Translations under genes and position numbers: made by a program
Notes under the pieces: generated by a model
What the model saw: the letters and a program-made list of their open reading frames with translations, nothing else
Databases searched by the model: none
What the model was told of the DNA's origin: nothing
Shown: positions 8,564 through 29,783 of the stretch, in pieces
Position numbering within the stretch: position 1 is the first letter of the stretch
How the letters are laid out: each line of letters begins with the position of its first letter
Assembly: GCA_002919195.1 (NCBI GenBank)
Contig: PKEU01000123.1
Location: forward strand, 15,003-79,002
Length of the DNA stretch: 64,000 bases
From: a bacterium
GTDB taxonomy: Bacteria > Bacillota > Limnochordia > DTU080 > RSA5
Direction of reading: 5' to 3'

Positions 8564-9217
8564 TTGGACGTTTTTGGATCGTTTTTTGGATGGTTGCCGG
8601 CGGGAATTCAGGCGATTTTGGTGTGGTTGACCCAGATCACGGGCAGCGCCGGCATCGCCATCATCCTTCTTACCATCTTGATCCGACTGGCCCTTTACCC
8701 GCTGACGAAAAAGCAGACCGAGTCCATGATCGCACTGCGGGAGATCCAACCCAAGCTTCAGGAGATCCAAAACAAGTACAAGGACAATCCACAGGAATAC
8801 CAACGGCGAGTGCTCGAACTCTACCGGGAAAAGGGCGTCAATCCTTTCGGCGGTTGCCTCCCTCTCTTGATCCAGTTCCCCTTTCTGATTGCCCTCTTTC
8901 AAGTGCTCAGGACGTACACCTTTGAAGGGGTCGATCCGCGCTTTCTCATCTGGACGTTGACGGAGCCCGATCGGTTTTATGTGCTGCCCATCTTGTCGGG
9001 CCTGACCACCTACTTCATGTCGGCCATGACGTCCGGCGGCGATCCGTCGCAAAGGGCGATGCAACTGATCATGCCGATCTTTATCGCCTGGATCTCCATC
9101 AGCTTCCCGGCAGGCTTGGTCTTGTACTGGGTGGTCAGCAACATCTTTTCCATTGTGCAGCAGTACATGTTGACGAAGAGCATGCCCATGGTTGAAGGGG
9201 GGGCCAAGGCAAAGTGA
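8564..9217 (+). CDS. yidC: Membrane protein insertase YidC/SpoIIIJ (short Gram-positive type)
   Basis: 217 aa multi-TM protein. Conserved YidC core (LLTILIRLALYPLTKKQ...MQLIMPIF...). Follows rnpA and yidD as expected. Confidence 0.85.
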   Translation: MDVFGSFFGWLPAGIQAILVWLTQITGSAGIAIILLTILIRLALYPLTKKQTESMIALREIQPKLQEIQNKYKDNPQEYQRRVLELYREKGVNPFGGCLPLLIQFPFLIALFQVLRTYTFEGVDPRFLIWTLTEPDRFYVLPILSGLTTYFMSAMTSGGDPSQRAMQLIMPIFIAWISISFPAGLVLYWVVSNIFSIVQQYMLTKSMPMVEGGAKAK

Positions 9218-9849
9218 AATCGGTGGAAAAGACGGGTAAGACGGTCGACGAAGCCATCCAAGCGGCGCTGGAGGAGCTTGGCGTCAAACGGGAAGAGGCT
9301 AAGATCGAGGTTTTAGACGAGGGTGCGAAAGGTTTCTTGGGGATCCTCGGCGCAAGGCCCGCACGCGTGCGAGTGACCGTCGACAATTCTCTGGATGCCA
9401 AGGTCAATGCAGCGCGCGAATTTCTCGCAGGCCTTTTGGAGCGGATGAACGTCAGTGCCGAAATTGAGACCGAGATCGGTGAGGACCAGCTGGTCTATAT
9501 GCGTATGAGCGGCCGCCGCATGGGAGTCGTCATCGGACGGAGGGGCCAGACCCTCGACGCGATTCAGTATCTTGTCAACTTGGTGGCCAATAAACTCCCC
9601 GGTCCCCGGGCTCGCATCGTCCTCGACGCCGAAGGATACCGGGATAAACGGGCGGAGACGTTGCGAAACCTCGCCACAAGGCTCGCGGCCAAGGCAAAGA
9701 GCGAGCGGCGGAAGACGGTCTTGGAGCCGATGAACGCACTGGAACGGCGCATCGTTCACTTAGCTTTGGCGGACGATACTGAGGTTGAAACCCGCAGCGA
9801 AGGGGAGGAGCCCTACCGCCGGGTAGTCATCCTGCCCAAGCGGACCTAA
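9214..9849 (+). CDS. jag: RNA-binding protein Jag/KhpB (KH plus R3H domains)
   Basis: 211 aa with a C-terminal R3H motif (LEPMNALERRIVHLALADDTEVETRSEGEEPYRRVVI). Conserved position after yidC. Confidence 0.85.
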   Translation: MKSVEKTGKTVDEAIQAALEELGVKREEAKIEVLDEGAKGFLGILGARPARVRVTVDNSLDAKVNAAREFLAGLLERMNVSAEIETEIGEDQLVYMRMSGRRMGVVIGRRGQTLDAIQYLVNLVANKLPGPRARIVLDAEGYRDKRAETLRNLATRLAAKAKSERRKTVLEPMNALERRIVHLALADDTEVETRSEGEEPYRRVVILPKRT

Positions 9850-10010
9850 AGCAAGATCAACGCTGTTATGTGAAGGGCGACGGAAAAGGCCTCCTTCCCG
9901 TTTCAGGGAGGGAGGCTTCTTTCATCATGATCGGCGGTCGCGGCATGTGCCATCGACGGAGCGCCCCGATGCGCTCTCGCCGGCAAGAGGTGACGCTCGT
10001 GGTGCAAGAG

Positions 10011-11506: not shown

Positions 11507-13408
11507 ATGGCCGAGCGTTTTGACGTGATCGTCGTCGGCACGGGGCACGCGGGGTCGGAGGCGGCTCTTGCGGCGGCCAGAATGGGGATGAAGACCCTGG
11601 CGTTAACGTTGAGCCGCTACAATTTCGCGACGATGTCGTGCAACCCTTCCATCGGCGGTCCGGCCAAGGGCACGCTGGTCCGCGAGGTCGACGCCCTGGG
11701 CGGCGAGATGGGTCTCAACATCGACCAGACGGCGATCCAGGTGCGCATGCTCAACACCAGCAAGGGGCCGGCGGTGCAGGCCTTGCGCGCCCAGGCGGAT
11801 CGTTTCGCCTACAGCCGGCGGATGCGGTGGGTATTGGAGCACCAACCCAATTTGGAAGTGCGGCAAGCGGTGGTCTCGGACATCCTCGTCAGCGAGGGAC
11901 GGGTGCAGGGTGTCGTCACCGCGGCGGGCGAACGTTATCTCGCTCCGGCCGTCATCTTGACGACGGGCACCTACATGGGCTCCCGGGTCCATATCGGCGA
12001 GGTCAAATTCGAGTCGGGCCCGAGGGGCCAAAAGACCAGCGATCGCCTCTCTCGCTCGCTCCTCGACCATGGATTTTCGATCGTCCGCTTTAAGACGGGA
12101 ACGCCGCCGCGGGTGAAAAGATCCAGCATCGATTACTCCCGCCTCGAACCCCTCGCGGGCGATCCCAACCCTCCCGGCTTTTCCTTTATGACGGGCCGGA
12201 TCCAACGAGAGCAGGCGCTTTGCTGGATCACGTACACCAACCAGCGCACCCACGAGATTATCCATGCCAATCTCCACCGGGCGGCGATGTACAGCGGCGC
12301 GATCACGGGTCCGGGACCCCGTTACTGCCCGTCCATCGAGGCCAAGCTTAAGATGTTTCCCGACAAGGACCGGCACCAGGTGTTTATCGAGCCCGAAGGC
12401 TGGAACTCCCGGGAGATGTATCTGAGCGGCATTTCCACCAGCCTCCCTAAAGAGGTGCAGGAGGAGTTTTTGCGCACGATCCCGGGATTGGAAAACGCCG
12501 AGATCACGCGGTACGGGTACGCAATCGAGTACGACGCGCTTGTCCCCACGCAAATCCAGGCCTCGCTCATGACCAAAGAGGTCGAAGGTCTCTTTACCGC
12601 AGGCCAGATCAATGGGACCACCGGGTACGAGGAAGCGGCAGCGCAAGGGATCATCGCAGGCATCAACGCCGTCCGCTATGTCCGTGGCGAGGAGCCTTTG
12701 ATCCTCGACCGCTCGCAGGCGTATATCGGTGTGCTCATCGACGATTTGGTGACCAAGGGTACCCAAGAGCCCTACCGGATGATGACCAGCCGGGCGGAGT
12801 ACCGGTTGCTGCTCCGCCACGACAACGCGGACAAGCGGCTGACGCCGATCGGGCGTGCCGTGGGTTTGGTGGACGATAAGAGGTACCGGCTGTTTGAGGA
12901 GCGCTGGGCCAAGATCGAGGAAGTGCAAGAGCGTTTGCATGCGGTCCGCGTCGGAGCGACCCCCGAAGTGCAGGAAACGCTGGTGCGGCTCGGCACAGCT
13001 CCCCTTCGCCGTGGGCAGGGGCCTACCTTGGCAGAGCTCCTCAAGCGGCCCGAGATGACCTTTGAAAAGCTGGTGGAGCTCGACAGCCAGCTAGACGCCG
13101 TGCCTCCCGAGGTGCGGGAGCAAGTCGAGATCGAGGTGAAGTACGCGGGGTACATCGCCAAGCAAGAAGAGCAGGTCGAGCGTTTCCGCCGGCTCGAAGC
13201 GAAGCGGATTCCCGAAGGCACCGATTACTGGGCGATTCCCGGCCTGTCCAAGGAGGCGCAGGAGAAGTTGTCGACCATCCGGCCTCGTTCGATCGGGCAA
13301 GCGGCGCGGATCTCGGGTGTCTCCCCGGCCGATGTCTCGGTGCTCTTGGTCTACCTGCACGCTCGTGGAGGGAGGCCGCAGTCCAAGGCGGTCGGCGCCC
13401 ATGTCTGA
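11507..13408 (+). CDS. mnmG: tRNA uridine 5-carboxymethylaminomethyl modification enzyme MnmG (GidA)
   Basis: FAD-binding FDVIVVGTGHAGSEAA. About 630 aa, GidA family. AGGAGG lies 8 nt upstream of the ATG at 11507. Confidence 0.95.
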   Translation: MAERFDVIVVGTGHAGSEAALAAARMGMKTLALTLSRYNFATMSCNPSIGGPAKGTLVREVDALGGEMGLNIDQTAIQVRMLNTSKGPAVQALRAQADRFAYSRRMRWVLEHQPNLEVRQAVVSDILVSEGRVQGVVTAAGERYLAPAVILTTGTYMGSRVHIGEVKFESGPRGQKTSDRLSRSLLDHGFSIVRFKTGTPPRVKRSSIDYSRLEPLAGDPNPPGFSFMTGRIQREQALCWITYTNQRTHEIIHANLHRAAMYSGAITGPGPRYCPSIEAKLKMFPDKDRHQVFIEPEGWNSREMYLSGISTSLPKEVQEEFLRTIPGLENAEITRYGYAIEYDALVPTQIQASLMTKEVEGLFTAGQINGTTGYEEAAAQGIIAGINAVRYVRGEEPLILDRSQAYIGVLIDDLVTKGTQEPYRMMTSRAEYRLLLRHDNADKRLTPIGRAVGLVDDKRYRLFEERWAKIEEVQERLHAVRVGATPEVQETLVRLGTAPLRRGQGPTLAELLKRPEMTFEKLVELDSQLDAVPPEVREQVEIEVKYAGYIAKQEEQVERFRRLEAKRIPEGTDYWAIPGLSKEAQEKLSTIRPRSIGQAARISGVSPADVSVLLVYLHARGGRPQSKAVGAHV

Positions 13409-14168
13409 CGTTCCGGTGAGCGGCGCGGCCTTCCGGGAGACTTTTCTGCAGGCGTTGGATCAGGTGCTCGCGGCTCCCCTCTTTGCCCCGCTGCTCCCTT
13501 TCCTCACCCGAGAGAAAAGGGAGATGATTCTTAGCTTTATTGAACGCTTGGTCGAGGCAAATCGCTCGCTCAACCTCACGGCCATCACGGATCCCGCTGC
13601 GATCGCGGCCAAACACGTGGGCGACTCCCTCACCTGCTTGCTTGTGGGCGATTGGCCAGAAGGGGCGAGCGTCTGCGACATCGGCACCGGTGGCGGGTTT
13701 CCGGGTATGCTGCTTGCCATCGTGCGACCTGACCTGGATGTGTGCCTGGTGGATTCGGCCGGAAAGAAGGTCGAGTTTCTCGCAAGCGTGGCCCGGGAGC
13801 TTGCGACACCGGTGCGGACCGTGCATGGCCGGGCGGAAGAACTGGGCCGGCGGGGCGAGTTTCGCGAGCGTTACGATGTCGTTGTCGCGAGGGCCGTGGC
13901 GCGCCTTCCGGTGTTAGCTGAGCTCTGCTTGCCGCTTTTGAAACGTTCGGGGTGGTTCATCGCCATGAAGGGCCCCGCCGGAAGAGAAGAGCTGGCCGAG
14001 TCCGGACGCGCCCTGCGTGTGCTGGGGGGAGAAGCTCACGAGGTACGGGAAGTCGCGCTGCCTTTAGACGCCGGCCAGCGCACGTTGATCGCGATTCGAA
14101 AGGAAGGCAGCACTCCTCCCTCTTATCCACGCCGGCCGGGCATCCCCGCTAAGAAGCCCCTGCTCTAA
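13401..14168 (+). CDS. rsmG: 16S rRNA m7G527 methyltransferase RsmG (GidB)
   Basis: SAM-binding ...VCDIGTGGGFPGMLLAI.... The ATG at 13401 overlaps the mnmG stop (ATGTCTGA). Confidence 0.9.
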   Translation: MSDVPVSGAAFRETFLQALDQVLAAPLFAPLLPFLTREKREMILSFIERLVEANRSLNLTAITDPAAIAAKHVGDSLTCLLVGDWPEGASVCDIGTGGGFPGMLLAIVRPDLDVCLVDSAGKKVEFLASVARELATPVRTVHGRAEELGRRGEFRERYDVVVARAVARLPVLAELCLPLLKRSGWFIAMKGPAGREELAESGRALRVLGGEAHEVREVALPLDAGQRTLIAIRKEGSTPPSYPRRPGIPAKKPLL

Positions 14169-14312
14169 GCTTCCCTTCTTTACTGGTCCTGCCAGAGTTT
14201 TGACCAGCCTGTGATCCCGCGAGCGCTGTGGTACTGGCGATTTTGGAGGAATGGCAAGGCGCACTCTCGAAACCTGGCATCGTCTTGCGCGCATGAAAAG
14301 GGGTGTGAAGGG

Positions 14313-15188
14313 GTGCGCCTAGGGGACATCCTCCGAGCGAAAGCCAAGGGCGACAGCCCTCGCCTTCCCCCGACGGATGATCTGGGGTGGAAAGAGGAAG
14401 TCGTATCGCTTCCCGTCGGAGCGATTGAGCCCAATCCCTACCAGCCGCGACGAGAGTTCGGCGAAGAGCAGCTGCAGGAGTTGGCTGCGTCAATTCAACA
14501 ACATGGGATCCTCCATCCCGTGGTCGTGCGGCCGAAAGAATCGGGTTTTGAATTGGTGGTCGGCGAGCGGAGGCTTCGCGCGTGCCGTCTACTGGGATGG
14601 GAGCGCATCCCTGCCGTGATCCGGGAGCTCTCCGATACAGAAGTGGCTGAGATCGCTCTGATCGAAAACTTGCAGCGTGAAGGTCTCAGCTTTTTTGAGG
14701 AAGCCGAAGGATACAGGCGGCTGCTGGAGGAGTTTGGGCTGACGCAAGAAGAGCTGGCACGCCGACTGGGCAAGAGCCAGTCGGCGGTGGCCAATAAGTT
14801 GCGCTTGCTGCGGTTTGAGCAGCCCGTGCGCGAGGTTATTTCCCGGGAAATGCTGTCAGAGCGGCACGCCCGCGCGCTGCTGAGGTTGGAAAGAGCGGAA
14901 GATCAGCTCCGGGCGCTGGAAGTCATTGTGAAGAGGCAGCTCAATGTGCGAGAGACTGAAAAGCTCGTCGAAAGGATGTTGGCGGAAGGTCCGGAAGCTA
15001 AGGATCAACGGAAGCGTCCATCGATCCGGGGCGTCTATAAGGACTATCGGCTGCTCCGTAATAGTGTCAAGAAGCTGGTGGATCAAATGAATGCCGACGG
15101 TGTGATGGTCGAGTTCGAAGAAGTCGAAGAAGGAACTTTCGTTGAATTACGAATTCGTATTCACCACCAGGATAAAGGAGGCCGCTAG
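14313..15188 (+). CDS. noc: Nucleoid occlusion protein Noc (ParB family). The ORF begins at 14211; GTG at 14313 is a plausible start.
   Basis: Sequence resembles B. subtilis Noc (YyaA) as recalled, e.g. SERHARALLRLERAEDQLRALEVIVKRQLNVRETEKLVERML, in the ParB N-domain, HTH and C-terminus. Sits between rsmG and soj as in Bacillus. A perfect Noc-binding site lies inside the gene. Confidence 0.85.
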   Translation: MRLGDILRAKAKGDSPRLPPTDDLGWKEEVVSLPVGAIEPNPYQPRREFGEEQLQELAASIQQHGILHPVVVRPKESGFELVVGERRLRACRLLGWERIPAVIRELSDTEVAEIALIENLQREGLSFFEEAEGYRRLLEEFGLTQEELARRLGKSQSAVANKLRLLRFEQPVREVISREMLSERHARALLRLERAEDQLRALEVIVKRQLNVRETEKLVERMLAEGPEAKDQRKRPSIRGVYKDYRLLRNSVKKLVDQMNADGVMVEFEEVEEGTFVELRIRIHHQDKGGR

Positions 15189-15191
15189 GAC

Positions 15192-15956
15192 TTGGGACGC
15201 GTCATCGCGATCGTGAATCAAAAGGGTGGCGTGGGTAAGAGCACGACGGCGGTCAACCTGGGGGCCTATCTCGCGTGCGCCGGGAAGCGGGTGCTGGTGG
15301 TCGACATTGACCCGCAAGGCAATGCCACCAGCGGGCTGGGCGTGGAGAAGTCGGAAGTGGAGCATTGCATCTACTCGGTTTTGATCGGCGAACGCGAGAT
15401 CAAAGACGTGGTCCGGTCGACTGCGATCGAGGGTTTGGAGGTTGTGCCGGCGACGATCGCTCTTGCGGGCGCCGAGATCGAGCTGGTGCCGCAAATGTCC
15501 CGGGAGTTTCGCCTCAAGCGGTCTCTCGAACCGGTGGTCGACGACTACGACTTTATCTTGATTGACTCTCCCCCGTCCCTCGGCCTGTTGACGGTCAACG
15601 GGCTCACCGCGGCGCACGGGGTGCTGGTCCCGATCCAGAGCGAGTACTACGCCCTCGAAGGATTGAGCCAGCTGATGAACACCATTGAGATGGTGCGGAC
15701 CCACCTCAATCCCCGGCTGGAAGTCGATGGGGTGGTCATCACGATGTATGACGCCCGCACCAACCTGTCTCAAGCGGTGTTGGAGGATGTGAAATCCTTT
15801 TTCGAAGGCCGTATCCGGGTGTTTGAGACGGTGATTCCACGAAACATCCGGCTGAGTGAAGCGCCGAGTTTTGGCCTGCCCATCGTGCTCTACGATGACC
15901 GTTCCAAAGGAGCGCAAGCGTACCGGGCGCTGGCGGAGGAGGTGCTCGCAGGGTGA
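15192..15956 (+). CDS. soj: Chromosome partitioning ATPase ParA/Soj
   Basis: MGRVIAIVNQKGGVGKSTTAVNLGAYLA deviant Walker A. 254 aa. TTG start 10 nt downstream of AGGAGG. Confidence 0.93.
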   Translation: MGRVIAIVNQKGGVGKSTTAVNLGAYLACAGKRVLVVDIDPQGNATSGLGVEKSEVEHCIYSVLIGEREIKDVVRSTAIEGLEVVPATIALAGAEIELVPQMSREFRLKRSLEPVVDDYDFILIDSPPSLGLLTVNGLTAAHGVLVPIQSEYYALEGLSQLMNTIEMVRTHLNPRLEVDGVVITMYDARTNLSQAVLEDVKSFFEGRIRVFETVIPRNIRLSEAPSFGLPIVLYDDRSKGAQAYRALAEEVLAG

Positions 15957-16810
15957 GCCGGAAAGCTTTGGGCAGGGGTTTGCGCGCGTTGATCCCGGAG
16001 AGCGACGCGTTTGAGGGAGCCGCGGTCCGGGTGATTCCCATCGACCAGATCGACCGCAATCCAGAGCAGCCGCGCAAGCACTTCGATGAGGCACAGCTCG
16101 AGGAGCTGAAAGAGTCGATCTTGGCCCACGGCGTGCTGGAACCGATCATTGTGCGGCCGGTGGAGGGCCGCTATGAAATCGTGGTGGGTGAGCGTCGCTG
16201 GCGGGCGGCGAAGCTAGCGGGCTTGGACGCCATCCCGGCGGCGGTCCGCGAGATGTCGGATCGCGAGGCCATGGAGTTGGCGTTGGTGGAAAACCTCCAG
16301 CGCGAAGACCTCAACCCGATCGAAGAGGCCGAAGCCTACAAGCGGTTGATGGACGAGTTTGGGTTGACGCAAGAAGAAGTCGCGGATCGGGTGGGCAAAA
16401 AGCGTTCGACGGTAGCCAATCGGTTGAGGCTGCTCGAAATGGAGCCGGAGCTGAGGGCTGAGGTATCAGCCGGTCGGCTTTCGGCGGGCCATGCCAAGGC
16501 GCTGCTGGCGATCAGCTCCTCCCGCGAGCGGATGGAAGTCGCGCGCCGCGTGATTGAAGATGGTTGGTCAGTGCGAGCCGTCGAGGAGTATGCGCGCCGG
16601 GCGGGCCGAAAGCCCTCTGCTCCAAATCGCGCGGCAGCGCGGCGAGCGAAGGATCCGTTTCTGCAAGAAATTGAAGAGAGACTGCAGCAATGTTTGGGAA
16701 CAAAGGTGCGCATCGTGGGCCAAGGCCGACGGGGACGCATCGAGATCGACTACTACAGCGAAGAAGACATCGAACGGATCTTAGAAATCATCGTGGGAGA
16801 GCACACCTGA
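15953..16810 (+). CDS. spo0J: Chromosome partitioning protein ParB/Spo0J
   Basis: MSRKALGRGLRALIPE N-terminus, GERRWRAAKLAG box, HTH. 4-nt overlap with soj. Confidence 0.93.
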   Translation: MSRKALGRGLRALIPESDAFEGAAVRVIPIDQIDRNPEQPRKHFDEAQLEELKESILAHGVLEPIIVRPVEGRYEIVVGERRWRAAKLAGLDAIPAAVREMSDREAMELALVENLQREDLNPIEEAEAYKRLMDEFGLTQEEVADRVGKKRSTVANRLRLLEMEPELRAEVSAGRLSAGHAKALLAISSSRERMEVARRVIEDGWSVRAVEEYARRAGRKPSAPNRAAARRAKDPFLQEIEERLQQCLGTKVRIVGQGRRGRIEIDYYSEEDIERILEIIVGEHT

Positions 16811-16834: not shown

Positions 16835-18073
16835 TTGTCGGTGGATGTGAGGGCGATGGGTTCGGGAGCGGACATCCGTGTGGAGCTTGGTAGTGGCGCT
16901 GCATGGCTGACGGAGGCGGCGAGACGCATGGAGAGGACTTTCGAGGATGTTTTAAGTATGCTCGGTCCCGGGCAGCGTGTGCGGCTCGAGACGGGCTCGA
17001 CGATTTATAGGGGCCCCTACGAGAGTCACATTCTCGAAGTAGACAGCGGCGGTGTGCGCATCGCCGCTCCGATGGACAATGGAAAACTGGTGCTGATCCC
17101 GGTCGGTACCACCGTGACGGTCACTGCAGATACACCGGTCGGGAGCGTCACCTTTGAAACGGCGATCGTGGACCGTACCGCGGGTCGAAATCGCTCTTTG
17201 CTCCTGGCTTCGCCCCCTGCCCCGGGCGCCGAGGAAGTCGCACCACCCCGGGATGTGCCGATCATCGCGGTGGGAAGCGGCAAGGGCGGCGTCGGCAAGA
17301 CGACTCTGGTGGTCAATTTGGGCATCGCGCTGTGCCGGCTGGGAAAGAGAGTGTGTGTGATCGACGGCGACCTTGGCACGGCCAACGTGGACGTCATCAT
17401 CAACGTGGGAAGCCGCTATAACCTCTCACACGTCGTGAGCGGCGAACGGCATATGTTGGAGGTGGTCGTCGAAGGTCCCGAGGGTCTGATCGTGCTTCCG
17501 GGCGGCTCAGGGTTGCAAGAACTGACCATGCTGGACGAGCGGAAGTTCTCCATGATCCTGAGCCAGTTCCGGGAGCTCGAAGAATACGCCGACATCATTT
17601 TGGTGGACACCGGCAGTGGACTCTCCCCCAGTGTGACAAACTTCCTCATGGCTGCGTCGCAGTCCATTCTCATCACCACCCCGGAGCCTCACGCAATTAC
17701 CGACTGCTACGCTCTGATCAAGGTGCTCGCGACCAAGGGATATACCGAACCGCTGCGATTGGTGGTTAACCGCGTCGAATCGGACGTTGAGGCGGCCGAC
17801 ATCAGTCGCAAGATGACCTTCGCGAGCCGGCGATTTCTCAATACCCAGCTGGACGTGCTGGGATCGATCGCCGAAGATCCCGCGGTCGCCCGGTCGATTC
17901 GACGTCAGGAACCGCTGATGCTGAGTGAACCCCGCTCCCGGGCGGCTGCGCAGGTGCAGACGATCGCCCAGCGGTTGGTCGGAGGCGAGGAAGCGCCTCA
18001 TAAGGCCGGCGGCACCTTGGGCTTTTTCCAACGCGTGCGCCGGTTAATCCCCGGCTGGGAAGGGCGAGCATAA
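16835..18073 (+). CDS. MinD/ParA-family deviant-Walker-A ATPase with an about 140-aa N-terminal PilZ-reminiscent domain and a C-terminal amphipathic tail. Start is uncertain (TTG 16835, GTG 16841/16847, ATG 16856).
   Basis: Central AVGSGKGGVGKTTLVVNLGIAL...DGDLGTANVD is MinD/FlhG-type. N-terminus carries RRMER (RxxxR) and EVDSGGVRI motifs. C-terminal ...GTLGFFQRVRRLIPGW resembles the MinD membrane-targeting helix. Begins 25 nt after spo0J, probably in the same operon. Confidence 0.6.
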   Translation: MSVDVRAMGSGADIRVELGSGAAWLTEAARRMERTFEDVLSMLGPGQRVRLETGSTIYRGPYESHILEVDSGGVRIAAPMDNGKLVLIPVGTTVTVTADTPVGSVTFETAIVDRTAGRNRSLLLASPPAPGAEEVAPPRDVPIIAVGSGKGGVGKTTLVVNLGIALCRLGKRVCVIDGDLGTANVDVIINVGSRYNLSHVVSGERHMLEVVVEGPEGLIVLPGGSGLQELTMLDERKFSMILSQFRELEEYADIILVDTGSGLSPSVTNFLMAASQSILITTPEPHAITDCYALIKVLATKGYTEPLRLVVNRVESDVEAADISRKMTFASRRFLNTQLDVLGSIAEDPAVARSIRRQEPLMLSEPRSRAAAQVQTIAQRLVGGEEAPHKAGGTLGFFQRVRRLIPGWEGRA

Positions 18074-18143
18074 CAGCTCCGAAGGCGTCTGACGACCACG
18101 AGGGCGCGCAGGTTTAGAGATATTCGGTGCAGCGCATGCGATG

Positions 18144-18159
18144 TGTTCCACGTGGAACA
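18144..18159. other. parS site 1: TGTTCCACGTGGAACA, a perfect 16-bp palindrome
   Basis: One mismatch from the B. subtilis parS TGTTCCACGTGAAACA (position 12, A to G), which makes this the fully symmetrised version. Identical 16-mer recurs at 18670 and 19841. Confidence 0.8.
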
Positions 18160-18669
18160 AGGAATCGGCGATCACGGTGTGACCATGAATCTCCCCACCG
18201 CTGTCCCCTTCTCGCGTTGTATCCGCAATCCCCCTTCCCCAGCGTGCTGCAGTGAGGGCGAAGATGGCTCATTACGAGTTCCCAACAAGCCGCGAGCGAC
18301 AAGGGAGCGATCAGCGGATTCAGGGGGCGGGGTTCAAAAGCGGTGCAGGCTTGAAGTGGTCAGGATGACGATGAGATGACGCCGTGGGCGCGCCGGCCTG
18401 AGTGTGTTCGGTACCGGTGAGACGCTGTGCGGGAAAGCGCCCGCTGGGGACGGCATGCGCGCTGTGCGCTCCCCCGATAGCACGGCGGCGGAATTTGGCC
18501 GGAAAGGATCGAGTCGCGAGCTACGGGGTTTTGGACAGTGGCTTCGCGCAGGACCTTACGAAGCCAATGCCCGTCTTACGAGCGGGAGCCGAAGGGATTG
18601 GCACGTGAGTGAGCGAGAACCCGACGGTCAACGGCCGGGGACCCTACGGCATGTGAGACTCCGCCCCAC

Positions 18670-18685
18670 TGTTCCACGTGGAACA
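18670..18685. other. parS site 2: TGTTCCACGTGGAACA
   Basis: Identical 16-mer, 526 bp after site 1, in the gene-free stretch. Confidence 0.8.
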
Positions 18686-19840
18686 ACGGCCGAGACGATA
18701 GACCGTCTCCTCCAGAGGATCCTGCCGGTGGAGAGACGATGTGGCCTTCCCCAACGGACGGGCCGCGCACGCAACAAGGATTGCAAACCGCCGAGGGCGA
18801 CGTGCCGCCCGCGACCGAGCGCCTGTGCCACGGTGCTGATGGGTACACCTTTTCACTCCTCGACGGATGACGAGGCTTCGACATACCGGGTGGTCTTTCG
18901 CCTTCTATTCCATGAGGGGTGACAGCGTCGAGGCGCTGGACGGCTCAACCCCCCTGTCCCGCTCGCATCCTGGAGGAAGTTCCTACAGCCCACTGGCCGA
19001 AAATTCCGGGCAACGCGCCGGGCGGCAGGCCTGCGCGGTTGTGAGCCGATATGTGGGGGCGCGACCGAACGTGTCGCACACGAGCGCACCTCGGTCGGCT
19101 CCACACTCTTGGAAGCTCCACCTCGAACTGAGAGAGACACCTTTACAATGTCGCCTCCTTATACCCTCCTGTTCCACTCAAGTGCCGAGGACCTTGGGAT
19201 GGTGTACTTGATGGTCTCGGTCGCCCTCGCAGGGTGATCGGCGATCTCGACGTGCGTCGGACACATCCGACACGCCGGGCGTCCCCGCTGGCTCCGCAGC
19301 GGCCGGTTGCGGGTCCACGCTGGCTCCTCACGTGCACGGCGGGTACTTCGTCACCGGCTTCCGATCGCGATGCTAGCGGGTACGTTTGCGAGCGCGTTTG
19401 CAATGCCGCGTGCGTGCCCACATGCGAAATCACTTACGATTGTGACTGTCCTTCCCCGTACGATGGGGAATGCGTTTAGGCTTCTGATCATGCCATCGTA
19501 GTCGCAAGTGTATCAAATTCCCTCTTCGCCATTCCTTGGAACAGCGCATGAGAAAGGGCCTTCGAGCGCTCCTTGCGACGCAATGAGACCTAGAGGCCAC
19601 CTCACTGGCAAGGTTTCGGACTGCCTGCACGCCCGATGCATCTAGTCTCCAAATGTTCCGAGCGAAAAGCGGTTGCAGACGGGTGTCGAGATGCGCCGGC
19701 GTCCTGACTAGCCGCCTTCCATTGCCTCGATACAAGGGAAGACGCTGCCGTGCACCATACAGCACTGCTCGTCCCTCGATCATCGTCCTACGTGCGCCTC
19801 AGGCCAACAACTCGGCCCGGCTGCAAGGGGATCCTTCCAG

Positions 19841-19856
19841 TGTTCCACGTGGAACA
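19841..19856. other. parS site 3: TGTTCCACGTGGAACA
   Basis: Identical 16-mer, 1171 bp after site 2. Confidence 0.8.
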
Positions 19857-20523
19857 TGAAGCATCGTCCCAAGCGCGAAGAAAGCGTTGTCTGGCACAAC
19901 CGGAAAAAGCACAAAGACGCCAAGCTCCGGACGGCTAAGCCCGAGGCGAAATATCGAAGCACAGTGGCTCCCACTATAGCGCAGGTTGATCGAGCGCGGG
20001 AGGTCCATGAGACGAAATAGCCTCTTAGTGTGACAGACGTGGGCTGTGGCGCAACAATCGGAGGGGGACGCGCGACCCATAGCTCGCACACGCACGAACC
20101 CAAGAGAGCTCCAATAGTTCGTGGTTCAAGAGAGCTCGGAGTTCAAACGCAGCTCGCGGTCTGATGCCCCCTTTTAGAAAGTGCGACGAATTGGATGGCT
20201 CCGTGGGGGGAAATTTATCACCTCAGGCTTCAATCAGCCCAGCCAGGCAACGAGACCACGGGCACACGTGCTATCTCGCCTCCTCACGGGAAGAAGCCCA
20301 GCGCGCGAGCGAGACGGTAAGCACCGTCAACTCGACCGACACGAAAGGACGAACACCCGTTCCCTCCGAGAGGGACGCAGTTTGGCCCCGTCCCATCAGT
20401 CCCGTCACTAAGAGGATCGCGCGAAAAATGACGAAGTTATTCAGGCGAGTCAAGAGGAGCCGGGGACTTTTGTGAAGGACCTTCGGCAAATCCATTTAAA
20501 GGACCACGAGTATTTCCCGGCAA

Positions 20524-21672
20524 ATGCTCCGTCGTCGCGCCATGGGGGTCGGGGGAGATGAGGCGTCTCTGCCTTCGTTGGGTGAGAGGCGTCATCTGCT
20601 GAGGAGGAGGCCCCCATTGCCATCGACGTTCGAGAAGATACGGACCATTTTAGCCGCACTCCGCAACGGCCAGTTCACCCTGATGTTTGTGCCCGATATG
20701 CTGCATCGACCCCGGACATGGCGGATGCCTCTGCGGCGGCTTTACATCGCGAGCGGTGCCGCCCTGGCAGTGCTATCGTTAGCGATGGCAGCCTTCGTCT
20801 GGGCTGGCGCCGCAACCTTGACCATCGCCAACACCCGGCAGGCGCTGGAATTACTCTCCGAAGAGAATCGCCGGCTGGAGTCAATCACCCATCAGCAACA
20901 GGCCAAACTCCTGGAAATGGCTCGCGAGGCGGCGATGCTCGCGGAGCGCGTGACGGAGTTGGAACTACTCGCCAACGAGATCCGAGACCTTGTGCTTCTT
21001 GTGGCTCAAGACGACTCCGTCGCGTCCGGCCAACTCTCAAGCGCCACAGCGCATTCACATTTGGAAACCGCCATGGAGAGATCGATAGACACATCGCGCA
21101 TCGGGAGTTTCCAGACGGCTGATCGGCTTCCCGCAAGCGGCGTCGGTGGAGGGGAGCTCTACCCCTACGACTTGAGTGCGCAGCTCCGCGGAAGCCTGAC
21201 CGCCCTTCGTTGGGCGGTGGAGAGCCAAAGTGATCGCTTGGCCGCCCTCAAAACCTCCGCAGAGGCCTATCAACACAAGATGAGGCACACGCCCAACGCC
21301 TGGCCGGTCACCGGCAGAGTAACCTCCGAATACGGCCGGCGCCGCCATCCCACGAGGGGTGTGTACCAACATCATGCCGGCATCGATATCGCCGTGCCGC
21401 TGGGCACACCCGTGCTCGCCACCGCCGCCGGAAAGGTGGTCCACGCGGGACCCAACGGCGGGTACGGGCTCACCGTGGTGATCGACCATGGCTACGGCCT
21501 TCGGACCCTGTACGCCCACAATGCGCGGGTGCTCGTCCAGCCAGGGGATCGAGTCGAACGGGGCGATGTCATCGCCCTTGCGGGCAGCACTGGTGTGAGT
21601 ACCGGGCCGCACGTTCACTACGAGGTCCATGTCGACGGCCGTCCTGTCAATCCCAGGGAGTTTCTACCCTGA
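20524..21672 (+). CDS. Membrane-anchored M23 (LytM-type) peptidoglycan endopeptidase with a coiled-coil region (LmdC/EnvC-like architecture). Start is uncertain.
   Basis: Cytoplasmic N-tail, TM (LYIASGAALAVLSLAMAAFVW), coiled coil (LELLSEENRRLESITHQQQAKLLEMAREAAMLAERVTELELLANEIRDL), and a C-terminal M23 domain with HAGIDIA...HVHYEV metal ligands. Confidence 0.85.
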   Translation: MLRRRAMGVGGDEASLPSLGERRHLLRRRPPLPSTFEKIRTILAALRNGQFTLMFVPDMLHRPRTWRMPLRRLYIASGAALAVLSLAMAAFVWAGAATLTIANTRQALELLSEENRRLESITHQQQAKLLEMAREAAMLAERVTELELLANEIRDLVLLVAQDDSVASGQLSSATAHSHLETAMERSIDTSRIGSFQTADRLPASGVGGGELYPYDLSAQLRGSLTALRWAVESQSDRLAALKTSAEAYQHKMRHTPNAWPVTGRVTSEYGRRRHPTRGVYQHHAGIDIAVPLGTPVLATAAGKVVHAGPNGGYGLTVVIDHGYGLRTLYAHNARVLVQPGDRVERGDVIALAGSTGVSTGPHVHYEVHVDGRPVNPREFLP

Positions 21673-21677
21673 CGCCG

Positions 21678-22265
21678 ATGCCGTGTCGACCCGGGGGGCT
21701 CCTCAAGCAACCCGAAGGAGTGGCTTTCTTGCTCTGGATACGGAAGATTTGGCCGTGGAAGACGCGCCGGATCGCGCGGCGCGACGCAGAAGAGATTGTC
21801 ATCCGTATGGATGAAGTCTATGAAGGCGCCCTCCGCGCGACCGGCGTGCTGCGCATCGAGGGAAAGGTGCGCGGGACTATCGACGCAAAAGGCGACGTCA
21901 TCATCGGTGAGAACGCGCTCGTCTGGGCCGACGTCTCCGCGGTCAACCTGATCGTCGCCGGTGAACTCCACGGAAAAGTGGACATCCCTGGCCGCCTGCA
22001 CATCCTTCCAGGGGGGAAATTTTCCGGTGACGCCCGCGTGGGCGTCTTTGTAGCCGAAGACGGCGCGGCCTTTTGCGGTGATTGCACAGTGGAGGTGCGA
22101 CGACCGGGCCAACGCTCCGAGCACATCACCCGCAGGATCGAGACGACCGCTCCCGCCGCGACGACCGGACAACGGGCGGGCGAGCCTGTTGGGACGCCGG
22201 ACTCTTACCAGGCAATTCGGCCGTCTCCAGGAGGAAGCCAAGATCTCCCATGTAATTTGATATAA
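21678..22265 (+). CDS. Bactofilin (DUF583 beta-helical polymer-forming protein). N-terminal extent is uncertain.
   Basis: Core LRIEGKVRGTIDAKGDVIIGENALVWADVSAVNLIVAGELHGKVDIPGRLHILPGGKFSGDARVG is a classical bactofilin repeat, followed by a Pro/Gly-rich tail. Confidence 0.8.
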   Translation: MPCRPGGLLKQPEGVAFLLWIRKIWPWKTRRIARRDAEEIVIRMDEVYEGALRATGVLRIEGKVRGTIDAKGDVIIGENALVWADVSAVNLIVAGELHGKVDIPGRLHILPGGKFSGDARVGVFVAEDGAAFCGDCTVEVRRPGQRSEHITRRIETTAPAATTGQRAGEPVGTPDSYQAIRPSPGGSQDLPCNLI

Positions 22266-29099: not shown

Positions 29100-29783
29100 T
29101 TACGATTCCCAGGTCGCGGCGATTTGCAAGGCCGGGGAGCGCCAGTGTTTGGCCAAGGAGTCGATGAGGGCTTGGGCGATGAGGTCGGCGAGGCGCATCA
29201 CCAGGTTGAGGCGGGTGTTTTGCAAGACGAAGTACTCCATAAAGCCGCCGACGTTGACCACGCCGACGATGTGAAAGCTGCCGACGGGAGGCAGGCTCTT
29301 GTGGACGCCGGTGCCGGGCCTTAAAGGTCCCGGCTTGACGCAAACCGTGCCGACGTTTTCCGACCGCCCAAGGCAGGCGTCAACGGCGACGACGAGCTTA
29401 TCTTGGCCTGCTTCCCGGAGGGCCTCGAGGCGCTCGGAAAGGTTAGCCGCGTGGACGGGGCTTTCCAGCGTGCCGTGGACGATCAACCGCGGGTGCCGGA
29501 TCCTGCTGAGTTGCGTCCCCACGAGGGGGCCGAGAGCGTCTCCCGTCGAGCGGTCGCTGCCGACGCAGACGATGGTGACGGGCGCCGGCCGGGGGGAAAA
29601 AGACGCGAGATGGGAAGCGATCGCCGCGCTCAACGTGTCGCGCCCCGCAGGATCGTCCACATGCACCCGGGTTTCGCCGGGGCGGGCTGCGATGCCCTCA
29701 GCGCGGCCCAGCGTCGCCGCTGGAGGTTGGCCCGCCTGCCCGGCGGGAGAAGTCCGGGGCCCGGTTTTCCACATCCGCCTCAC
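29100..29783 (-). CDS. yyaC: Spore-protease-like protein YyaC (DUF1256)
   Basis: ...VTIVCVGSDRSTGDALGPLVGTQL... is the YyaC/GPR-like signature. The origin-proximal position matches B. subtilis yyaC. Confidence 0.7.
   Translation of the reverse strand: MRRMWKTGPRTSPAGQAGQPPAATLGRAEGIAARPGETRVHVDDPAGRDTLSAAIASHLASFSPRPAPVTIVCVGSDRSTGDALGPLVGTQLSRIRHPRLIVHGTLESPVHAANLSERLEALREAGQDKLVVAVDACLGRSENVGTVCVKPGPLRPGTGVHKSLPPVGSFHIVGVVNVGGFMEYFVLQNTRLNLVMRLADLIAQALIDSLAKHWRSPALQIAATWES

Follow-up and report, generated by a model that had tools for sequence, protein, structure and literature searches.

A gene for an M23 (LytM) peptidase and, directly behind it on the same strand, a bactofilin gene are found in a stretch of 64,000 nucleotides (nt) of contig PKEU01000123.1 (assembly GCA_002919195.1, positions 15,003 to 79,002 of the forward strand) from a Limnochordia bacterium of the Bacillota. 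This whole stretch is referred to as the window, and all coordinates are counted from its first letter. Its G+C content is approximately 62%, and the closest named homologue of the M23 protein stems from a metagenome-assembled Limnochordia genome. The pair had been noticed in a first-pass annotation, the claims of which are taken up where our results bear on them.

Genes and proteins of the M23–bactofilin pair

The open reading frames (ORFs) and the genes with their corrected starts, with protein lengths in amino acids (aa), are as follows.

20524-21672, + strand: M23 (LytM) ORF, 382 aa (ORF list)
20617..21672, + strand: gene of an LmdC-like bitopic M23 (LytM) endopeptidase, 351 aa (Pfam PF01551, ribosome-binding site (RBS), homologue P0001)
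21678-22265, + strand: bactofilin ORF, 195 aa (ORF list)
21729..22265, + strand: bactofilin gene, 178 aa (Pfam PF04519, RBS, homologue P0122)

Judged by its sequence context, the M23 gene almost certainly starts at TTG 20617, giving a protein of 351 aa. An RBS (GAGGAGGAGG) is located 7 nt 5' of this codon, and the database protein P0001 (351 aa, 99% identical to the M23 protein) begins at the matching position. ATG 20524 was rejected as a start, as the codon is not conserved in the relative L001 (ATA in the upstream alignment with L001 and L004) and P0001 is shorter; the stretch from ATG 20524 onwards aligns in L001 as a conserved non-coding leader. As the start moves to TTG 20617, the cytoplasmic tail of the protein comprises 41 residues rather than 72. 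Residue numbers for the M23 protein refer to the 351-aa form unless the long ORF is named. The bactofilin gene probably starts at TTG 21729 (178 aa), with GAAGGAG as RBS 8 nt 5' of the codon, and the bactofilin homologue P0122 (73% identical) begins with MLWVRK. ATG 21678 was rejected in favour of this codon based on the RBS and the start of P0122. With the corrected starts, a gap of 56 nt separates the two genes and no terminator is predicted between them, from which we infer a single transcription unit. A promoter and terminator scan returned nothing exceeding shuffle expectation, and an Rfam scan of the whole window gave zero matches.

The M23 protein is composed of the following parts.

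20617..20739, + strand: cytoplasmic tail, residues 1-41 (AlphaFold2, motif conservation)
20740..20820, + strand: single transmembrane (TM) helix, residues 42-68, N-in (hydropathy, flank charge)
20821..21288, + strand: extracytoplasmic coiled-coil region (AlphaFold2, heptad-like sequence)
21292..21669, + strand: M23/LytM catalytic domain, residues 226-351 (conserved residues, PDB match)
21373-21387, + strand: HAGID (HxGxD) motif with H253 and D257 (motif)
21610-21618, + strand: HVH (HxH) motif with H332 and H334 (motif)

The Pfam family Peptidase_M23 (PF01551) matches residues 283-377 of the 382-aa ORF with an E-value of 2.2e-35. The residues H253, D257, H301, H332 and H334, which correspond to the zinc ligands and catalytic histidines of the LytM structure, are invariant across all 50 homologues aligned. 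Because all five are intact, the enzyme should be active. The sole hydrophobic stretch of the protein comprises residues 42-68 (73-99 of the long ORF), with Kyte-Doolittle values of up to 2.04 in 19-aa windows, and its N-terminal flank carries a charge of +3, hence the predicted N-in topology. C-terminal to this stretch the sequence is helical and heptad-like, and many homologues show weak Pfam matches to coiled-coil families. An AlphaFold2 model based on a 50-sequence alignment (mean predicted local distance difference test score (pLDDT) of 81.6) contains a continuous helix over residues 39-136, spanning the TM segment and the stalk, followed by a low-confidence linker (residues 137-182) and a second long helix (residues 183-224). 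The stretch that joins the TM helix to the LytM domain is thus predicted to hold one to two coiled-coil segments.

In the same model, the tail forms a helix (residues 4-16) and subsequently a beta-hairpin (residues 19-38, QFTLMFVPDMLHRPRTWRMP; strands 19-24 and 33-38; pLDDT 62-72) that directly precedes the TM helix. Just N-terminal of the TM helix lies a motif, [FY]-T-[LIV]-M-x-x-P, 5-6 residues and R-x-[FW]-x-[IV]-P, which is kept in homologues from Bacillota, Nitrospirota, Acidobacteriota, Gemmatimonadota, Myxococcota, Bdellovibrionota-like bacteria and Chloroflexota. Full-length tblastn alignments to Myxococcota and delta-type homologues begin at residue 15-21 of the M23 protein. To go by its sequence, the tail is more than a random leader.

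Among proteins of solved structure, Csd1 of Helicobacter pylori is the closest by sequence (5j1l_A, E-value of 4.4e-29). The top NCBIfam models are MepM and the Campylobacter shape factor Pgp3 (second-best), at 101 bits against a cut-off of 300 bits; as the NCBIfam scores fall far under the cut-offs, the M23 protein is not an orthologue of a named enzyme. Members of the LmdC clade, Csd1 and Csd2 included, are by definition proteins in which one or two coiled coils follow an N-terminal TM segment and the LytM domain is active (Figueroa-Cuilan et al., PMC8416486). LmdC itself is a bitopic DD-endopeptidase, of which the tail residues 1-38 bind the bactofilin BacA with a dissociation constant of ~15 uM (Pohl et al., eLife 2024, PMC10945521). 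The beta-hairpin in this tail is reported to be conserved among LmdC homologs, and its mutation abolishes BacA-dependent localisation in Rhodospirillum rubrum (PMC10945521). As far as sequence and predicted structure can show, the M23 protein of the window has each of these features of the LmdC clade. The first-pass annotation had described a cytoplasmic tail, a TM segment, a coiled coil and an intact LytM domain with HxGxD and HxH motifs, all of which hydropathy, AlphaFold2 and the 50-homologue alignment bear out. The LmdC/Csd1-type architecture that it proposed is likewise upheld, and is extended by the cytoplasmic beta-hairpin, which it did not mention.

A coiled coil followed by a LytM domain is also the layout of EnvC. 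Indeed, the best full-length Foldseek match of the model is Vibrio cholerae EnvC in the FtsEX-EnvC complex (8tzl_E), Escherichia coli EnvC-FtsX (6tpi_A) is matched as well, and weak DivIC-like coiled-coil matches occur in 11 out of 50 homologues. The M23 protein might accordingly be a division factor of which the coiled coil is held by FtsEX or another part of the divisome for cutting the septal wall or activating its cutting, while the bactofilin has an unrelated job. We regard this as improbable, given that EnvC is without a cytoplasmic domain and its active site is degenerate, whereas five invariant catalytic residues and a conserved tail are present here. The TM-scores amount to only 0.33, with a root-mean-square deviation of 46.6 Å over 363 aligned columns, and the match derives solely from the shared coiled-coil-plus-LytM layout. 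The conserved same-strand pairing with a bactofilin further argues for a shared function of both proteins.

The second gene encodes a bactofilin with the following parts.

21729-21770, + strand: N-terminal membrane-targeting-like peptide MLWIRKIWPWKTRR (from start TTG 21729)
~21798-22085, + strand: bactofilin domain, residues 24-119 from TTG 21729 (Pfam)
22086-22262, + strand: Pro/Gly/Thr-rich C-terminal tail, 59 aa (sequence)

The Bactofilin family (PF04519) matches residues 41-136 of the 195-aa ORF over 96 out of 98 profile positions (E-value of 1.6e-20), which confirms the canonical bactofilin expected at this place. On the sequence, a canonical beta-helix domain of the bactofilin type appears to be flanked by short unstructured ends. 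Provided that TTG 21729 is the start, the N-terminus (MLWIRKIWPWKTRR) is hydrophobic, then basic, and Trp-rich. Bactofilins paired with M23 proteins in other Bacillota begin with MFGKKKSK or MFGKRPAE in the alignment with relatives. The consensus of the bactofilin membrane-targeting peptide is MFSKKKK, which is also prevalent in Bacillota (PMC12448750); the starts of the relatives are close to it, and the version in the window keeps the hydrophobic-then-basic order.

The pairing extends well beyond the window. In 10 out of 11 full-length homologue loci (34-79% identity), the M23 gene is immediately followed by a same-strand bactofilin gene; the exception, P0115 (36% identity), has neither bactofilin nor par genes near the M23 gene. 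Across phyla, 80 M23 loci were sampled with one genome per species, as a sample rather than a census. Bactofilins in these loci were scored with a hidden Markov model built here from the locus ORFs; the sequence search had listed only two bactofilin homologues. A downstream same-strand bactofilin gene occurs in 18 of the 80 loci (including Saganbacteria, Endomicrobia, Elusimicrobium, Nitrospirota, Acidobacteriota, Caldiserica and delta-type proteobacteria), and the adjacency is far beyond chance. A published list of species in which M23 and bactofilin genes stand side by side has 226 entries, some of them Firmicutes, with Symbiobacterium, Syntrophomonas, Halanaerobium, Thermoanaerobacter, Desulfitobacterium and Paenibacillus among its members (PMC10945521). 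The pairing as such is already known, and the present locus adds a new example. Variants exist too: in locus L014 (8923-10860), two bactofilin genes flank one M23 gene, and in L017 (10502-12336) both of two bactofilin genes lie downstream of a single M23 gene. The pair of Paenibacillus aestuarii (L071, 4193-11511) is far from par and stands beside a divergent actin-like (ALP_N/MreB-like) gene and GerA and spore-permease genes.

Proposed function of the pair

Based on the observed gene pairing, domain architecture, intact catalytic residues and conservation of both the tail motif and the pairing, we propose that the two genes form a morphogenetic module of the LmdC-BacA (Csd1-CcmA) kind in Limnochordia-like Bacillota, a reading to which we assign a probability of roughly 0.65. 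The bactofilin would form polymers, with no need of nucleotide, on the cytoplasmic side of the cell membrane, where its short hydrophobic and basic N-terminal peptide would hold them. The M23 enzyme would cross the membrane once, with the hairpin of its 41-residue tail docking on the bactofilin polymer, and outside the membrane its rigid coiled-coil stalk would carry at its end an active zinc endopeptidase for cleaving peptidoglycan cross-links. The polymer may thereby restrict cleavage of the wall, and with it growth or curvature, to a particular region of the cell. For the polymerisation, the binding between tail and bactofilin, the DD-endopeptidase activity and the effect on cell shape, these expectations are inferred from LmdC-BacA and Csd1-CcmA. 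The described Limnochordia species is pleomorphic and forms cells that are curved or filamentous, and a module for cell shape would suit this. Bactofilin-M23 modules are an established bacterial means of restricting wall cleavage to one place, of which this locus offers a clear Bacillota example with an apparently intact binding hairpin.

Several points weigh against this proposal. The confidence of the predicted tail hairpin is only moderate (pLDDT 62-72), and the tail sequence is not alignable to those of alphaproteobacterial LmdC proteins. To our knowledge, the module has so far been studied only in Proteobacteria and Helicobacter, and not in Bacillota. The same tail motif is present in homologues without an adjacent bactofilin and may hence serve a partner other than a bactofilin; such homologues could nonetheless carry bactofilin genes elsewhere in the genome. 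DUF5930, the N-terminal domain of alphaproteobacterial LmdC, gave no match with an E-value of 1 or less when all 50 homologues were searched. This domain is a feature of most Alphaproteobacteria, i.e., of a subgroup only, and Rhizobiales are also without it (PMC8416486). The LmdC orthologue of Agrobacterium tumefaciens shows no detectable phenotype (PMC8416486). Finally, the conserved place of the pair beside parAB could mean more than inheritance.

Surroundings of the pair near the partition genes

The window gene order around the pair is given below.

13317-14168, + strand: rsmG
14211-15188, + strand: Noc-like ParB paralogue
15192-15956, + strand: soj
15953-16810, + strand: spo0J
16835-18073, + strand: PilZN and MinD/ParA-like ATPase, 412 aa
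22295-23251, + strand: GFO/IDH/MocA oxidoreductase gene
29100-29783, opposite strand to the pair: yyaC/DUF1256

The 412-aa protein combines an N-terminal PilZN (YcgR-type) domain with a MinD/ParA-like ATPase domain and possibly ends in an amphipathic helix (TLGFFQRVRRLI). Its gene follows spo0J in the Limnochordia L001-L004, while other Bacillota are without this ATPase and carry DUF4446 before the M23 gene. The spacer of ~2.5 kb between the ATPase and M23 genes (18074-20616) contains no convincing ORF and holds the following elements.

18144, 18670 and 19841 (span 18144..19856), no strand: three perfect parS sites (TGTTCCACGTGGAACA; 3 found vs 0.15 expected)
20409..20616, + strand: conserved leader or putative promoter region of the pair (alignment with L001 and L004, blastn, inverted-repeat search)
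20409-20439, + strand: conserved blocks TAAGAGGATCG and GACGAAGTTA (TAAAGGAT.G and GACGAA.TTA), ~180-205 nt before the M23 start
~20512-20525, + strand: palindrome-like ATTTCCCGGCAAAT (ATTTCCCGG(G/C)AAAT), ~95 nt before the M23 start
20556-20597, no strand: inverted repeat with 14-nt arms, 86% complementary and 14 nt apart, just upstream of the M23 RBS

Compared with L001 and L004 by tblastx and blastn, the spacer shows no conservation beyond the parS sites and a short leader element. The Limnochordia relatives L001, L003, L004 and L005 have two to three parS sites each, which in L001 and L004 follow the ATPase gene. A tblastn search of 18074-20616 for a lost gene (Cys/Met pyridoxal phosphate (PLP) enzyme, DUF4446 and hypothetical ORFs from relatives) returned none, with only ORFs of L005 matching; as the L005 DNA is 95% identical to the window over this spacer, these matches are uninformative. 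The genes of L005 (ERZ25039577 contig_94201) are split into many short ORFs, most likely due to indel errors in the assembly. Because they are broken, the 79% identity of P0003 understates its closeness to the protein of the window. Equivalent leader blocks are present in L001 at ~9790-9920, and the palindrome could be a candidate binding site for a regulator. The leaders of L001 and L004 carry other inverted repeats, at different positions.

The blocks at 20409-20439 (AAGGAT...GACGAAnTT) resemble a sigma-H type -35/-10 pair. Such a promoter would suit a pair that acts mainly in sporulation, e.g., by remodelling the wall at the asymmetric septum or in the course of engulfment, and that is expressed from a stationary-phase or sporulation promoter. 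Neighbours in relatives point in the same direction, with yyaC/DUF1256 throughout, SpoVAE in L004 and GerA and a spore permease by the Paenibacillus pair. A role of this kind is nevertheless doubtful, since the pair is widespread in non-sporulating phyla, and the promoter is no more than a candidate.

The position of the pair relative to the partition genes is largely as the first-pass annotation described it. Adjacency to parABS holds in the window and in many Bacillota lineages. A distance of less than 3 kb is correct for the end of the ATPase gene (2.5 kb from the M23 start) and for the last parS (0.76 kb), and is slightly generous for the end of spo0J (3.8 kb). In the synteny survey near spo0J that it had suggested, soj-spo0J lies at most 10 kb upstream of the pair in 10 of the 11 full-length homologue loci that were also surveyed for bactofilin pairing. 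Pairs linked in this way belong to Limnochordia, Anoxybacter, Dethiobacteria and several unclassified metagenome-assembled Bacillota. All five Limnochordia-type loci share the order gidA-gidB-noc-soj-spo0J-PilZN/ATPase-spacer-M23-bactofilin. Anoxybacter fermentans, a Dethiobacteria genome and several unclassified Bacillota display noc-soj-spo0J-(0-5 unrelated genes)-DUF4446-M23-bactofilin-(UPF0180)-yyaC, with yyaC on the opposite strand, and an arrangement of this kind also occurs in L014, L017 and L026 (Bacillota of the genome sample). DUF4446 proteins measure ~170 aa and have a hydrophobic N-terminal stretch. In the par-linked loci L006, L007, L014, L016, L017, L026 and L089-L093, the DUF4446 gene is always directly upstream of M23; it lies 66 nt behind spo0J in L090, where it also overlaps with the start of M23. 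By tblastn, DUF4446 is absent from the window. None of the literature searched mentions DUF4446, combines bactofilin, M23 and spo0J or describes the spo0J-DUF4446-M23-bactofilin block. In Megasphaera micronuciformis (L016, 7512-10759), soj-spo0J-DUF4446-M23 is found and no bactofilin gene was detected in the locus; the bactofilin was either lost while M23 was kept in place or never present.

This arrangement may suggest that the bactofilin, with or without the M23 protein, belongs to the chromosome-partition machinery and anchors ParB-parS, Soj or the PilZN-MinD-like ATPase at the membrane in the manner of BacNOP-PadC, thereby coupling origin placement to wall remodelling. Besides the proximity of soj-spo0J (within 10 kb upstream) in several Bacillota lineages, the parS sites 0.76-2.5 kb upstream of M23 and the two to three sites in Limnochordia relatives are consistent with this idea; Myxococcus provides a precedent of bactofilins organising ParABS (PMC5703909), and the 59-aa C-terminal tail of the bactofilin could bind a client protein. 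We still judge it unlikely. What separates spo0J from the pair varies by lineage: it may be unrelated genes (for fumarase, HydF, aminotransferase, TrkA or alanine racemase), a PLP-enzyme gene on the opposite strand or, as in the window, 2.5 kb of non-coding sequence. Such insertions make the link to spo0J a loose one, and the tightly conserved unit, as far as gene order can tell, is (DUF4446-)M23-bactofilin. The pair also occurs without parAB within 10 kb upstream in a Clostridiales, a Paenibacillus and a Selenomonadales locus, and without nearby parAB in every non-Bacillota phylum sampled. Furthermore, yyaC/DUF1256, UPF0180 and a VanW/G5 gene are equally fixed in their places near the pair, which makes this a property of the whole origin-proximal block; as the entire region is syntenic, position alone says little on function. 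None of the eight ORFs scanned between 14 and 30 kb of the window encodes a PadC-like adaptor, and the extra ParB paralogue has the helix-turn-helix domain typical of Noc and ParB. The Selenomonadales locus L086 has a perfect parS at 8993, ~1 kb upstream of the pair, and no parA or parB in the 10 kb upstream.

The first-pass annotation had set the proximity of the genes beside the ParABS scaffolding by bactofilins in Myxococcus; that the proximity points to such a role is not supported. The Myxococcus scaffold consists of BacNOP and PadC, of which the genes are located elsewhere in the genome, and deletion of the par-adjacent bacM leaves the localisation of ParA and ParB unchanged (PMC3899335, PMC5703909). 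The analogy thus cuts against a partition role, because BacM, although co-transcribed with parAB, is a shape factor that is dispensable for ParA/ParB localisation and for segregation. Together with the spacer, the opposite-strand gene and the synteny of the whole region, this leaves functional coupling of the pair to ParABS a matter of speculation, with a low probability. A related view is that M23 and bactofilin are an ancestral working part of the spo0J-DUF4446-M23-bactofilin neighbourhood, in which the membrane-bound bactofilin serves as a fixed landmark for ParB-parS or a ParA/MinD-like ATPase and links the placement of the origin to wall remodelling nearby. Most lineages would have DUF4446 as the connector, and Limnochordia the PilZN-MinD-like ATPase; we hold little expectation that this view is right. 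The place of the pair by noc-soj-spo0J-parS is best read, from the gene orders compared, as a retained ancestral Bacillota origin-proximal gene order and not as evidence of a role in partition.

The fresh aspect of the locus is the conserved block downstream of spo0J in many Bacillota, usually behind the uncharacterised DUF4446, and it is not evidence of a new mechanism. Were the link to partition true, it would tie chromosome placement to the growth of the wall; otherwise the block remains useful for tracing ancestral gene order around the origin.

Comparison with known systems

Myxococcus xanthus offers two systems for comparison. Its parA-parB-bacM operon resembles the present locus in having a bactofilin gene downstream of chromosomal partition genes. 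There, however, bacM shares a transcript with parAB, the gene behind it carries a lipoprotein annotation and is not listed as M23, and BacM is a shape factor without a role in ParAB localisation, whereas the pair described here is a separate unit at 3.8 kb from spo0J. BacNOP-PadC likewise uses bactofilin polymers as a membrane-proximal platform, which the bactofilin of the window may have in common with it, but needs the adaptor PadC (no PadC-like gene occurs among the eight ORFs scanned), has no M23 partner and is encoded away from parAB.

In Helicobacter pylori (Csd1/CcmA) and Campylobacter jejuni (Pgp3), cell shape depends on an M23 enzyme acting together with a bactofilin, as is proposed here. 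Csd1, however, forms a heterodimer with its inactive paralogue Csd2 and reaches CcmA via a membrane complex, while no second M23 gene is located beside the present pair.

Another close counterpart is LmdC-BacA of Hyphomonas neptunium and Rhodospirillum rubrum (PMC10945521). It differs in its host, an alphaproteobacterium rather than a Limnochordia-like member of the Bacillota, and in its tail, to which the motif found here (FTLMFVP...RTWRMPL) is not alignable, with DUF5930 undetected as well. In addition, the present pair is situated in an origin-proximal par neighbourhood. The two systems nonetheless share adjacent genes, here with M23 first and bactofilin second, and perhaps also a bactofilin with a short N-terminal membrane-binding peptide. 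They also have in common a bitopic enzyme with a short beta-hairpin-containing tail, a TM segment, a coiled coil and an active M23 domain, all of which are predicted for the protein encoded in the window.

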